Source: Escherichia phage GaoY1-9D. Taken from it: a stretch of DNA of 50,368 nt. Below the pieces are notes generated by a model. It searched no databases and was not told where the DNA came from. It saw only the letters and a program-made list of their open reading frames with translations. Below are positions 1 through 50,368 of the stretch, in pieces (position 1 is the stretch's first letter; the number at the start of each line of letters is the position of its first letter). A program made the translations under genes and the position numbers. The stretch lies in the sequence record PP971806.1; one strand, written 5' to 3'.

Positions 1-12
1 GTATCCTACGCA

Positions 13-714
13 ATGCATAAAAAAGAAATTGAGTCGTTACAGGCGCGTTTAAATGCCTTAGAATCGAATCAAAAACATCAAATTTCTGTGCCGTCAATTA
101 TCGCCGATCATGTTGAGCAAGCAATCCTCAAGGCGGTGGCTGGGAAGTTGACTCACGAAGCATGTGAGCAATTGCTCAAGGATTTGCCTAAGTACAATGG
201 CGATCCGTGTCACAGCACTGTCGATGCATTCGTGAATGAGCTTGCGGCTGGCCCAGGGAAAACCGTCGTAGATGATGGCGCAAAGTTTGATTATCTGACG
301 AAAGATGCCAAGTTCACTTTCGGTAGCAATTTCGGTGAAGGCAAGGAGCTTACCATGTCAACCGCGAAAATGGAACCACGAAGCGGCGGTTACGGTTATA
401 GCAATCGTCACGTATGGGCGGTGGGTGAATGTGAATCAGCACGCGATCGCAAGGTGGCTGTTTGCTATTACGTTGGCGGGAATGGCTTCATCAAGGGTGG
501 AGAATATGAGTATGAAGTAGACGAGTGTGAAACAGGTCATAAACCGAGCGTTATTCACATCACGCAAGATGCCTTCCTCTCTGGACTAAAAGGTGATTAC
601 CGCTGGAGAGCATTGAAAGTTGGTAATGTAATAAATGCTAATGGTGAGCTAGTTGACGCATACGCAACACTAAATATTAATGGCGGAGTAGTGGCTCAGT
701 TCTATATTAAATAG
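13..714 (+). CDS. hypothetical protein, 5' end cut by window; true start is the ATG at 50149 in the duplicated end
   Basis: ORF in frame with 50149..50368 through the 127-bp terminal duplication; stop TAG lies inside the cassette dyad. Confidence 0.55.
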   Translation: MHKKEIESLQARLNALESNQKHQISVPSIIADHVEQAILKAVAGKLTHEACEQLLKDLPKYNGDPCHSTVDAFVNELAAGPGKTVVDDGAKFDYLTKDAKFTFGSNFGEGKELTMSTAKMEPRSGGYGYSNRHVWAVGECESARDRKVAVCYYVGGNGFIKGGEYEYEVDECETGHKPSVIHITQDAFLSGLKGDYRWRALKVGNVINANGELVDAYATLNINGGVVAQFYIK

Positions 715-3915: not shown

Positions 3916-4101
3916 ATGTTTGAAGTCAAGCTAACTATTTTGCTAATGGGGCGCACATGCGCATCGTGTAAGCAAAACTTTGAAGCAAAGGTTGAGGCCA
4001 GCAGCGCCGAAGAAGCCGTTTCAAAGGTGAAGGAAATGAGCGGAGTCGACACAACGACTCATAAATTTTTAGTTAATTATGTAAGGGGTATTTCATGCTG
4101 A
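3916..4101 (+). CDS. hypothetical protein
   Basis: ATG 3916 preceded by TGAGG; track ORF 3904..4101. Confidence 0.4.
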   Translation: MFEVKLTILLMGRTCASCKQNFEAKVEASSAEEAVSKVKEMSGVDTTTHKFLVNYVRGISC

Positions 4102-4316
4102 TGTTTATTTATGGTTTTATTTTCGCTTCCGTCCTGATCATTTCGCTTTCCTGCTCATGGGCAGCCAAGTTAATTAAGCGAGGTCAGTTCGCTCAAGCTC
4201 GATACGATGAGAAGAAAAAGCAGTGGCGCGTATCCGGCAAGTTTATCTCTGTGTTCAACGAGATTAACGACATTCGATCGGGGCGGAAGCCTGGGGCCAT
4301 AAAATACGTTGACTGA
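4095..4316 (+). CDS. small membrane protein
   Basis: hydrophobic N-terminus FIYGFIFASVLIISLS; followed by intrinsic terminator. Confidence 0.45.
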   Translation: MLMFIYGFIFASVLIISLSCSWAAKLIKRGQFAQARYDEKKKQWRVSGKFISVFNEINDIRSGRKPGAIKYVD

Positions 4317-4324
4317 TTCATTTA

Positions 4325-4349
4325 AGCATCCTTCGGGGTGCTTTTTTTA
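4325..4349 (+). terminator. intrinsic terminator
   Basis: hairpin AGCATCC-TTCG-GGGTGCT then T7. Confidence 0.7.
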
Positions 4350-4359
4350 TGACTGCGTG

Positions 4360-4388
4360 TTGACAATGATATATGGGTGCATTATTAT
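4360..4388 (+). promoter_or_regulatory. sigma70-like promoter
   Basis: TTGACA 4360-4365, 17-bp spacer, TATTAT 4383-4388. Confidence 0.55.
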
Positions 4389-4429
4389 TAACTCATCGGG
4401 GCGACCCACTAACCAGAAGGAGATTCAAA

Positions 4430-4666
4430 ATGATTACATTAAAAGCAATTCACAAAGATGGTAGCGAACAGGTTTTTGAGGTTAAGAATTTCGGCTACAG
4501 AGCAACGCAAAACCGAATTGATGCCGTTGATTGTGATTGCCAGCCATTCAGTATTTACCTTAACGATGACTCAGTTTCTGTTGTGTACGCAATGAATTCG
4601 AGAGGGGCAACTATTGGCAAGTACTTTCTTAACGATCAAGTAGGGCTACGAGATTATATTTCTTAA
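4430..4666 (+). CDS. hypothetical protein (moron-like gene)
   Basis: ATG 4430 with RBS AAGGAG; own promoter and flanking duplicate terminators. Confidence 0.5.
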   Translation: MITLKAIHKDGSEQVFEVKNFGYRATQNRIDAVDCDCQPFSIYLNDDSVSVVYAMNSRGATIGKYFLNDQVGLRDYIS

Positions 4667-4671
4667 ATACA

Positions 4672-4696
4672 AGCATCCTTCGGGGTGCTTTTTTTA
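4672..4696 (+). terminator. intrinsic terminator (duplicate of 4325..4349)
   Basis: identical hairpin AGCATCCTTCGGGGTGCT then T7. Confidence 0.7.
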
Positions 4697-4745
4697 TGCC
4701 TGCAATCTGGTATAATCCCTTCCTATTCAACAAGAGGATGAAACC

Positions 4746-5282
4746 ATGAAAGATGAAAACTTCACCAGCACCGCTCAAGAGAAGGTGCGCATTGGAAACT
4801 TCAAAGAGCTGTACAACAAAAAGTATGGCGACATTGCCAACCTGAACCATCGTCATCCAATGACGCCTGAGACTGTATTCAACCTTGCGGTTAAATATTT
4901 CTCATGGGCCGAGGACCAGGCAATTAAGGCAATCGAAACGGCGAGCTCCCAGGGCGTTGTCACTGAGAACCTAGTGCACAAGCCGCGAGTGTTCACGCTT
5001 AACGGCTTCCAGCTTTATTGCGGCGTTACCTCCGGTGCTATCCAAAGCTGGCGCGCGTCGCCTGGATTCTCTGAGGTAATGGAGTTCATCGACTCAGTAA
5101 TTATTGAACAGAAATATCAGTTAGCTGCGTCCAACCTTATCAACGCCGGATTCGTAGGCAAAGACATTGGTATCGACAAGGCGGCAGAAGTGAACGTGCA
5201 GAACAACGTATCGGCTGGCGCGGTGTCAGTAACTACTGATGAATTTAAAGAAGCCGTCAAGGATATTTTGGGGGAATTATGA
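4746..5282 (+). CDS. terminase small subunit (putative)
   Basis: position immediately upstream of and overlapping the large terminase; size 178 aa. Confidence 0.5.
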   Translation: MKDENFTSTAQEKVRIGNFKELYNKKYGDIANLNHRHPMTPETVFNLAVKYFSWAEDQAIKAIETASSQGVVTENLVHKPRVFTLNGFQLYCGVTSGAIQSWRASPGFSEVMEFIDSVIIEQKYQLAASNLINAGFVGKDIGIDKAAEVNVQNNVSAGAVSVTTDEFKEAVKDILGEL

Positions 5283-18635: not shown

Positions 18636-18660
18636 AAGCCTCCTAACGGGGGCTTTTTTA
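18636..18660 (+). terminator. intrinsic terminator-like hairpin
   Basis: GC hairpin then T6. Confidence 0.5.
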
Positions 18661-25421: not shown

Positions 25422-25505
25422 TTTGTTTTCCTTAGTAAGTATTTTTCGTTTCGATGAAGTAACTATACATGCAACTATCGTCGGAGTCTTTAACTATTCG
25501 TGCTA
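25422..25505 (-). promoter_or_regulatory. intergenic cassette copy (minus orientation)
   Basis: reverse complement reads TAGCACGAATAGTTAAA ... GTATAGTTA ... CATCGAAACGAAAAAT. Confidence 0.5.
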
Positions 25506-25938
25506 TTGTATACACGTAACCAATGTAACTCGATGTATACAATCCCATCCGCGAGAAATGATATACGCACTGTTACGCCAATTTACGCAATGGTTACATT
25601 AAAATATCTATATATATCAACCTTTTACTCTTATTATTATTATTATATATATTACTGTGTATATCATGTAACTACTTATATAGAGTGTTCCGCTTATAAA
25701 TTTCTAATATGTACATTTATACAGTATTTAATCACAAGCATACCAATGCACCATCCGCCAGAAGCGATATACACGATATACACGCTATTTACATCTAGCT
25801 ATAGCTGGGCATGATAGCCATTTTATGTAACTAGCGCCAATGTATACACATGATTACAGATACATACACGTAACCACTTGACTAATGCAACCAGTCGCGT
25901 ATAGTTAGCCACATCAACAACGAACGAGGATTAAAGAG
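25506..25938. repeat. AT-rich non-coding region with GTATACAC-type iterons and (TTA)n/(TA)n tract
   Basis: repeated TGTATACAC and GATATACAC; ACACGTAACCA twice; about 100 bp related to 46005..46100. Confidence 0.6.
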
Positions 25939-45744: not shown

Positions 45745-46373
45745 TTCGTTCGATTTATGGATTGTTGCAGCTATTGCAATGATTCACATGACTATTGCAC
45801 AGATAGCAATATTGCATCTATTGCAATGATGTTTTCTATTGTTGCGAATTGAGCAATGATTCATTGATGGGGGGAATGATGGGGTGATCAAGGATCACCT
45901 GATCGACTGGTAGGATTTTCCCGCCACACGCTTCTAGCGTATACGCGTTATTTATGTTATGCCATGTAGACACACCAGCACTCCGTAGGAATCATGTACG
46001 CATATCACGCTTAATTACGCCATGGTTACATTAAAATATCCTTATATAATAACCATTTATCTATATTATTATTATTAATATATATATATGTAGATAATGT
46101 AGATAGTGGATATGTGATATTGCGATAGTTTTCTATGATATTTTCCTACACCTGTAGGAATATGACGACATTGTAGGAATAAAAGGGCATGTAGGGGCCC
46201 ATTTGCTAAAAATCCTTATCTACAAACTATACGCAGACTTTACATTGAGCTATATCTGGGGCGATTGGTGGAAATATGTAACTAATCAGAAAATTTGCAC
46301 CGATAACACTTGATAACACGTAGATGTGTGATACTATGGAATCATCTTAGCGAAGACCAACCAATCAGGAGTA
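45745..46373. repeat. AT-rich non-coding region with TATTGCAATGAT repeats, GATC-rich palindrome, GTATAC and GTAGGAAT motifs and (TTA)n/(TA)n tract
   Basis: TATTGCAATGAT at about 45772 and 45819; GGTGATCAAGGATCACCTGATC; TGTAGGAAT three times; core related to 25560..25665. Confidence 0.6.
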
Positions 46374-50148: not shown

Positions 50149-50368
50149 ATGAACAGCATCAACCGATATATCCCTGTGTCAGCGCCAACCAGCGTCAACA
50201 TTCACGGCGTCGGAATGCAATCCTGCGACGATGGAGCATGGGTATCCTACGCAATGCATAAAAAAGAAATTGAGTCGTTACAGGCGCGTTTAAATGCCTT
50301 AGAATCGAATCAAAAACATCAAATTTCTGTGCCGTCAATTATCGCCGATCATGTTGAGCAAGCAATCC
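50149..50368 (+). CDS. hypothetical protein, 3' end cut by window (same gene as 13..714)
   Basis: ATG 50149 with RBS; in frame with 13..714 across the terminal duplication. Confidence 0.5.
   Translation, partial: MNSINRYIPVSAPTSVNIHGVGMQSCDDGAWVSYAMHKKEIESLQARLNALESNQKHQISVPSIIADHVEQAI

Follow-up and report, generated by a model that had tools for sequence, protein, structure and literature searches.

The 50,368-nucleotide record PP971806.1 of Escherichia phage GaoY1-9D (the window) is a complete genome of the genus Nouzillyvirus (Drexlerviridae, T1-like) and carries, between an operon of small genes and the packaging operon, a cassette with a single gene of the Rtp18 family. We put at about 75% the probability that this segment (4357-4703) is an accessory, horizontally exchanged, and self-contained expression unit, that is, a moron in the structural sense, gained from an Rtp-like source. 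The reading draws on sequence comparisons: related phages in which the site is empty or filled with other cargo, a terminator that is duplicated around the cassette, and donor-like sequences that meet the recipient sequence at both ends of the duplication.

Empty and occupied sites in Nouzillyvirus

Thirteen related phage records match the flanks of the cassette in two pieces, with exactly 347 bp absent between them. Twelve are filed under Nouzillyvirus (P817, 50EP, TH21, TH27, BUCT-XGG-1, p111, XT34, P818, CJ19, TH30, and two records of ESCO41), and the thirteenth, ETEP102, has no genus given. At these empty sites a gene of the DUF7299 family is followed by one copy of the terminator repeat and then directly by the promoter of terS, the gene for the terminase small subunit; in P817 and ETEP102, for example, the single repeat copy runs as the terminator and then ATGCCTGCAATCTGGTATAAT. 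A preliminary description of this DNA had proposed the moron layout and suggested such a comparison of relatives, with universal presence of the segment, free of the flanking repeat, as the sign of a core gene. The comparison came out in favor of the proposal, in that the cassette is patchy and most relatives are empty.

A third state of the site was found in the Nouzillyvirus PH1062 (L005, 738-1160), where the resident terminator is followed by a different promoter, an unrelated 60-amino-acid open reading frame (ORF), and the terminator AGCCCCTTAATTGGGGCT. PH1062 shares with the window the insertion point, the promoter-ORF-terminator layout, and the resident upstream terminator, but its ORF and promoter are unrelated and its downstream terminator is of the Rtp type, hence the resident terminator is not directly repeated there. 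Because PH1062 carries unrelated cargo there, the slot is a recurrent insertion point.

The same order of DUF7299 gene, terminator, cassette, and terminator as in the window was recovered in one metagenome contig (L010, from SRR20950916), which has identical joints and differs at 8 of 380 nucleotides (nt). Since L010 comes from an independent sample, the repeat-cassette-repeat arrangement is not an assembly artifact. The joints of the window and L010 appear to trace to a single event.

The duplicated terminator and the cassette joints

The cassette is bracketed by a direct repeat of 33 nt (AAGCATCCTTCGGGGTGCTTTTTTTATG, then A or C, then CTGC) at 4324-4356 and 4671-4703, both on the plus strand, with identity at 32 of 33 positions. 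The preliminary description was right that a hairpin and T-run are duplicated, but its spacing of 348 bp has to be corrected to 347 nt from start to start, and the repeat is longer than it had described, comprising the terminator hairpin, the T-run, and ATGnCTGC. Each copy is a predicted intrinsic terminator with a 7- to 8-bp stem, a UUCG tetraloop, and then seven T. The upstream copy (hairpin with UUCG loop at 4325-4342, T-run at 4343-4349, then ATGACTGC) is, judging by its sequence, the intrinsic terminator that resides at the end of the preceding operon of small genes and also the left joint of the cassette; the resident terminator reads AAGCATCCTTCGGGGTGCT. The downstream copy forms the right joint and is predicted to end the cassette transcript, its terminator (4671-4695; an 8-pair hairpin, UUCG loop, and seven T) being present in both the minimum free energy and the centroid folds.

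Terminators are short, G+C-rich, and superficially similar, and a third hairpin, 67% similar, lies at 18636. One might therefore ascribe the repeat to chance, to terminator convergence, or to duplication during assembly and deny that the ORF is a gene. This view is effectively refuted, and we regard it as almost certainly wrong. The match of 32 of 33 positions extends to the flanks outside the stem, the 25-nt repeat core occurs exactly twice in the window versus 0 times in 100 shuffles, and L010 has the same layout; the ORF, for its part, is under purifying selection, has a confidently predicted fold, and has homologues in more than 20 protein clusters.

The two ends of the repeat coincide with short sequences shared with a donor-like Rtp-like contig, L025. 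At the right joint, the window reads TCTTAAATACAAGCAT followed by CCTTCGGGGTGCT (which begins CCTTCGG), L025 reads TCTTAAATACAAGCAT followed by AGAAAGAGAAAAAGAGTAA (which begins AGAAAG), and the empty-site recipients read TTTAAGCAT followed by CCTTCGGGGTGCT. Since the window and L025 share TCTTAAATACAAGCAT, donor-type sequence meets the resident terminator at the common hexamer AAGCAT, which, at the 5′ edge of the downstream repeat copy, overlaps the donor-derived sequence TAAATACAAGCAT. At the left joint, the window reads GCTTTTTTTATGACTGC followed by GTGTTGACAATGATAT, L025 reads GCTTTTTTTCGTCTGC followed by GTGTTGACGATGATAT, and the recipients read GCTTTTTTTATGCCTGC followed by AATCTGG. Window and donor both continue with GTGTTGAC at this joint, and the common sequence is CTGC, which in the donor flanks the promoter and comes after a T-run that is present in both. 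The 33-nt repeat spans exactly AAGCAT to CTGC, and this coincidence of its ends with donor-like microhomologies supports the earlier suggestion that the duplicated terminator is a scar of acquisition.

The right end of the gene also has a history of its own. In L025 (1431-1475), the sequence after the stop codon, AATACAAGCATAGAAAG..., is a relic of an alternative C terminus (NTSIEREKE and stop) that is still coding in L020 (620-660), and the window keeps the first 11 nt of this relic. Because some Rtp-like copies keep the relic past the stop codon, the 3′ end of the gene has itself been replaced by recombination.

We propose an Rtp-like source for the unit, which would have joined a Nouzillyvirus genome at two stretches of short homology, one at CTGC, just past the resident terminator, and the other at AAGCAT, at the 5′ edge of that terminator. 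In the recipient the AAGCAT joint precedes the CTGC joint, so the 33-nt terminator would have ended up in two copies. The joints could have formed during coinfection, either by a template switch (e.g., at the hairpin) or by breakage and joining (between concatemers). Once in place, the repeat could also serve to delete the cassette again or to pass it from one Nouzillyvirus genome to another.

An origin in two steps, in which the cassette arrived with the Rtp-type downstream terminator AGCCCCTTAATTGGGGCT and gene conversion later replaced that terminator with a copy of the resident one, strikes us as quite improbable. The combination of resident terminator, cargo, and Rtp-type terminator does exist in PH1062, and the sequences after the two terminators are alike (TTTTTTA[C/T]G[C/T]CTG[C/T]AA), which provides some homology on the 3′ side. 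On the 5′ side, however, the homology is AAGCAT only, so that conversion would need the same microhomology joint; moreover, the collections searched contain no intermediate with this cargo, and the scheme takes one event more than direct acquisition.

Gain or loss within Nouzillyvirus

The nearest relatives of the window are Drexlerviridae filed under Nouzillyvirus, with about 88 to 92% identity across 20 kb. In local trees of the flanks, all deeper branches lack the cassette (TH21, TH27/TH30, CJ19, 50EP, and ETEP102) and both carriers are nested among noncarriers. These trees favor a gain within a Nouzillyvirus sublineage. The foreign composition of the coding sequence also points to gain: its G+C content is 38.8% (5th percentile of genome windows) and 35% at third codon positions, compared with 46.5% for the genome and 45 to 60% at third positions in neighboring genes.

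It is conceivable instead that the cassette is ancestral to Nouzillyvirus and that each of the 13 relatives lost it by recombination between the 33-nt repeats, which would make the repeat the cause of loss. Deletion between the repeats would leave precisely the site with one terminator that P817 and the other empty relatives have, and the position of the two carriers in the left-flank tree, where they are not sisters, calls for some secondary loss or transfer in any event. With all deeper branches empty and PH1062 holding other cargo, however, many independent losses would be needed. The foreign base composition and the greatest diversity of the gene, which is found among the Rtp-like copies (48 to 92% amino acid identity), also speak against ancestry, and donor-type sequence fused to the edges of the recipient terminator requires an insertion event regardless. 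We therefore consider an ancestral cassette unlikely.

Several points nevertheless weigh against the reading of a self-contained unit gained from an Rtp-like source. The microhomologies are short, at 4 and 6 nt. The nearest of the sampled Rtp-like copies have ~89% DNA identity to the window, and L025 resembles the window only at the two ends. The putative promoter and terminators of the cassette are assigned as matches to consensus. The local trees cover 424 to 494 nt of mosaic phage DNA and carry no bootstrap values. In the left flank, the window and L010 are separated by 16 differences, while L010 and the cassette-less p111 differ by only 5. As the carriers are not sisters there, the gain would have been followed by repeat-mediated losses or by transfer between Nouzillyvirus genomes via flank homology, two courses that the tree does not separate.

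The cassette in Rtp-like phages and Sashavirus

The only phages in the collection searched that encode the protein are Rtp (rtp18, YP_398962), IME253, ZL19, IMM-001, JeanPiccard, and JulesPiccard, all Braunvirinae. Their cassettes have a homologous promoter, leader, and ORF and occupy the same slot as the one in the window, but they are flanked by two different hairpins (AGCCCTCGCTTGAGGGCT upstream and AGCCCCTTAATTGGGGCT downstream) rather than by two copies of one. The gene lies just upstream of the terS promoter in Rtp, IME253, IMM-001, and ZL19, where terS falls within the compared stretch; in JeanPiccard and JulesPiccard it stands at the end of the record and is followed by the same conserved −10 block. 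The window protein shares 92% identity with its JulesPiccard homologue and 68% with that of Rtp. The site is empty in about 75 of 85 Braunvirinae records, where the upstream hairpin stands directly before CGTCTGCAATATGGTATAAT.

The annotation of these copies varies. In Rtp (L003, 1533-1814), ATT replaces the ATG of all other copies, and the annotated start of rtp18 is an ATG farther upstream, within the promoter. The JeanPiccard record (L002, 1517-1829) splits an intact ORF of 79 codons into three small, overlapping ones. Around the slot, Rtp, ETEP102, and L028 have HNH genes after terS, which the window lacks there, and several relatives (ETEP102, JeanPiccard, JulesPiccard, and OzMSK) have a tRNA-Arg gene some hundreds of bases before the slot; no tRNA gene was found in the whole window.

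Metagenome contigs of the Sashavirus/Nonanavirus (9NA-like) type carry the cassette at two sites, site 1 in L013, L015, and L021 and site 2 in L018. At one Sashavirus site, the cultured phage PJ16 is empty and BDX09P1 has other DNA. At least two layouts are seen at site 1: in one, the cassette has an upstream terminator and promoter of the Rtp type, and in another it is fused behind a resident promoter; in Sashavirus copies the Rtp-type upstream terminator moved together with the promoter.

No copy of the gene turned up in 185,579 bacterial species genomes, 5,426 complete Escherichia coli genomes, or 72,556 plasmids, and an origin from a host or prophage was rejected on these grounds. Its patchy distribution in three phage groups, together with its absence from bacteria and plasmids, marks it as accessory in virulent coliphages and, along with its promoter and leader, as mobile across unrelated lineages.

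Promoter, leader, and setting of the cassette

The preliminary description had credited the gene with a near-consensus promoter of its own and a strong ribosome-binding site, and both hold up. A predicted sigma-70 promoter, TTGACA-17-TATTAT (4360-4388, plus strand; predicted transcription start near 4395), matches the consensus at 11 of 12 positions directly upstream of the ORF and is conserved in 19 to 22 homologous cassettes. The 50-kb genome holds, on both strands, two 11/12 matches in all, of which this one alone has a 17-nt spacer. The untranslated leader of 35 nt (4395-4429, plus strand) has a 5′ hairpin, GGG-GCGA-CCC, at 4398-4407 and a Shine-Dalgarno sequence, AAGGAG, at 4417-4422, 7 nt upstream of the ATG at 4430. 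Host sigma-70 RNA polymerase would be expected to start at this promoter without any phage factor and to produce a monocistronic transcript of ~300 nt that has a short hairpin near its 5′ end, exposes a strong ribosome-binding site, and ends at the terminator with the UUCG loop. The upstream copy of the terminator would shield the unit from the preceding operon, and the downstream copy would shield the terS promoter.

The best-conserved part of the cassette is the 42-nt stretch from the −10 box to the ATG (4388-4429), with 96.4% mean pairwise identity in 19 instances; by contrast, coding identity is 87% in codons 1 to 20, 66% in codons 21 to 40, and 57% at third positions of codons 21 to 40. 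This conserved leader may be an optimized translation start or a regulatory site. It was found with the rtp18-type gene only (including the homologous loci L002 to L028), and because it accompanies this gene alone, a shared expression platform with swapped cargo was rejected. No Rfam family reached threshold for the leader or the cassette RNA, sub-threshold matches picking up only the terminators. The cassette transcript is without unusual structure (z of 0.84 and 0.13), and the leader is barely structured. The Shine-Dalgarno region CCAGAAGGA (4413-4421) could pair at 8 of 9 positions with TCCTTCGGG in both terminators (4329-4337 and 4676-4684), probably by chance, since terminators with a CCTTC loop resemble anti-Shine-Dalgarno sequences.

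The slot has fixed neighbors on both sides. To its left is the DUF7299 gene (4095-4316, plus strand; 73 amino acids), the last gene of the upstream small-gene operon, and to its right is terS (4746-5282, plus strand), which directly overlaps terL and is followed by terL and the portal gene. The extended −10 promoter of the terS-terL packaging operon, TGGTATAAT (4708-4716, plus strand), lies outside the cassette, is conserved across all relatives examined, and is the fixed right border of the slot. The block GGTATAAT at this promoter is invariant in the alignment of relatives, and a region overlapping the promoter carries a promoter annotation in ETEP102. With the DUF7299 gene and a terminator on the left and the terS promoter on the right, the cassette sits at the exact terminator-promoter junction of two operons.

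This setting could be taken to mean that the unit is a regulatory module of the packaging operon, in which the leader or a small Sm-like protein tunes terS-terL expression. In Drexlerviridae the cassette is always immediately upstream of the terS promoter, its leader is unusually conserved, and the protein has a weak fold resemblance to Hfq/Sm proteins. We nonetheless rate such a role as highly unlikely and retain the reading of an exchanged accessory unit.

The Rtp18 family protein

The single gene at 4430-4666 (plus strand) was placed correctly by the preliminary description, but its product has 78 amino acids plus stop rather than 79 amino acids. A longer, 97-amino-acid frame starting at 4373 was dismissed, because its start lies inside the promoter and the ATG is missing in homologues (e.g., L010 and JulesPiccard). 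Ratios of nonsynonymous to synonymous substitution rates (dN/dS) of 0.05 to 0.3, at dS of 0.4 to 0.6, against the Rtp-like and Sashavirus copies indicate purifying selection. An alignment of 21 proteins has the invariant blocks TLK, G.E..FE, and YAMNS.G.T.G.Y, and the family has the conserved motif VYAMNSxGxTIGKY. The product is predicted to be soluble and mildly acidic (isoelectric point 5.1; 8.8 kDa), with no lipoprotein signal, and its AlphaFold model is a six-stranded small beta-barrel with a predicted local distance difference test score (pLDDT) of 87.

The protein matches the profile of phrog_3909, a family of no known function, with an E value of 3.7e-15 over profile positions 1 to 62 of 64. 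Among 5.8 billion database proteins its family accounts for only 20 clusters, and every one of them comes from a contig that is short or of phage size. No match by sequence was found in Pfam, NCBIfam, PADLOC, or Protein Data Bank (PDB) profiles, and the viral structure library BFVD returned matches to uncharacterized phage proteins only. A profile search of 1.8 billion representatives added further small phage ORFs only, besides matches to beta-propeller-like repeat proteins, which are local hits to a hairpin motif and were judged to be motif similarity, not homology. Fold searches gave noise-level similarity only, to DUF903 (YgdI/YgdR) lipoproteins, CooT, Hfq/Sm, T4 Dmd, and YaeO/Rof. Dmd, YaeO/Rof, Hfq/Sm, and DUF903 have no sequence relationship to it and serve only as analogies for how a small protein might act.

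The preliminary description had suggested a host-interaction or exclusion factor, which may be right for a protein that matches no characterized family. Our own tentative guess at the most likely class is a protein made early that binds or inhibits a host factor or defense system, with a part in counter-defense or host takeover, because the product is small, soluble, phage restricted, patchy, laterally mobile, and expressed from a promoter independent of phage factors. Speculatively, the 8.8-kDa cytoplasmic barrel would act early in infection and bind a host or rival macromolecule. A more elaborate version, which we think rather doubtful, would combine an unrecognized counter-defense or host-takeover factor, plug-and-play among Rtp-like phages, Nouzillyvirus, and Sashavirus, with a leader that is a regulatory RNA element, for example one autoregulated by the Sm-like product. 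Literature searches on rtp18, phrog_3909, or morons in Drexlerviridae found nothing, and the available part of the BASEL paper mentions no phenotype that sets the carriers Bas02 and Bas03 apart from other Drexlerviridae. Differences in sensitivity to host immunity among Drexlerviridae are noted, unexplained, in a published study (PMC8594841). The small, conserved, phage-restricted Rtp18 family would be a reasonable candidate for what lies behind the differences described there.

Relation to morons and other mobile elements

In structural terms the cassette has what defines a moron: extra DNA between genes that are adjacent in relatives, a predicted promoter of its own, a predicted factor-independent terminator of its own, and, as is common in morons though not strictly defining, a base composition unlike that of the neighboring genes, in line with the layout between operons that had been proposed for it. 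Morons in the sense of Juhala and Hendrix are known from lambdoid phages, for example the tail-region moron of HK97/HK022 and bor and lom of lambda. The likeness extends to the single ORF, the sigma-70-type promoter and terminator, the position between genes adjacent in relatives, and the deviant composition. Unlike these, the cassette is bracketed by a duplicated resident terminator and is shared by three unrelated groups of virulent coliphages. Drexlerviridae are a family of virulent phages, and no integrase was found among the ten large ORFs of the window that were scanned. Because its carrier belongs to a virulent family, the cassette is a moron in the structural sense only and not a lysogenic-conversion gene, expression from a repressed prophage being inapplicable here.

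Other kinds of mobility were considered and rejected. An insertion sequence or transposon would bring a transposase, and the sole ORF, of 78 amino acids, is matched by nothing in Pfam or NCBIfam; terminal inverted repeats are absent as well, and the flanking repeat is 33 nt long and by sequence a terminator, not the short target-site duplication of a transposon. Mobility by a homing endonuclease was set aside because no endonuclease ORF lies in or beside the cassette.

The cassette is a fairly ordinary but clear and well-documented moron that overturns no current ideas; its kind is already known, and as a further instance it is of moderate interest. Its value lies in an unusually clean natural record of single-gene trade in virulent phages, with empty, occupied, and alternative-cargo sites as well as donor-like sequences. 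The location of the joints on the edges of terminator hairpins suggests that terminator-promoter junctions are preferred splice points, and the data point to a naturally permissive payload site for the engineering of T1-like phages, bounded by the last terminator of the early region and the promoter of terS.

Other features of the genome

The first 127 bp of the window (1-127) recur exactly at 50242-50368, which leaves a unique length of 50,241 bp; this terminal duplication is most likely an overlap from circular assembly or a terminal redundancy.

A motif, (A)ATAGCAC-N4-TG(C/T)TAAA, which includes the palindrome TAGCA-N5-TGCTA, occurs 20 times in the window versus 0.39 expected and is lacking at the cassette promoter. 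Sites lie at 712, 2067, 2696, 26977, 30406, 31960, 35042, 36356, 47462, 48353, 49018, and 50065 on the plus strand and at 25505, 42607, 43156, 44452, 44857, and 45744 on the minus strand, and they run in the same orientation as the local genes. At ~17 of them a −10 element resembling TATAGT or TATAAT follows some 22 nt on, often within a small inverted repeat, and is succeeded by a conserved CATCGAAACGAA leader. As the palindrome is centered near −42, it looks like an operator or activator site that would define a phage-specific class of promoters.

A direct repeat of 71 nt with 82% identity occurs at 25575-25645 and 46007-46077, 20 kb apart, and ends in a (TTA)n run; both copies are located where gene orientation switches.

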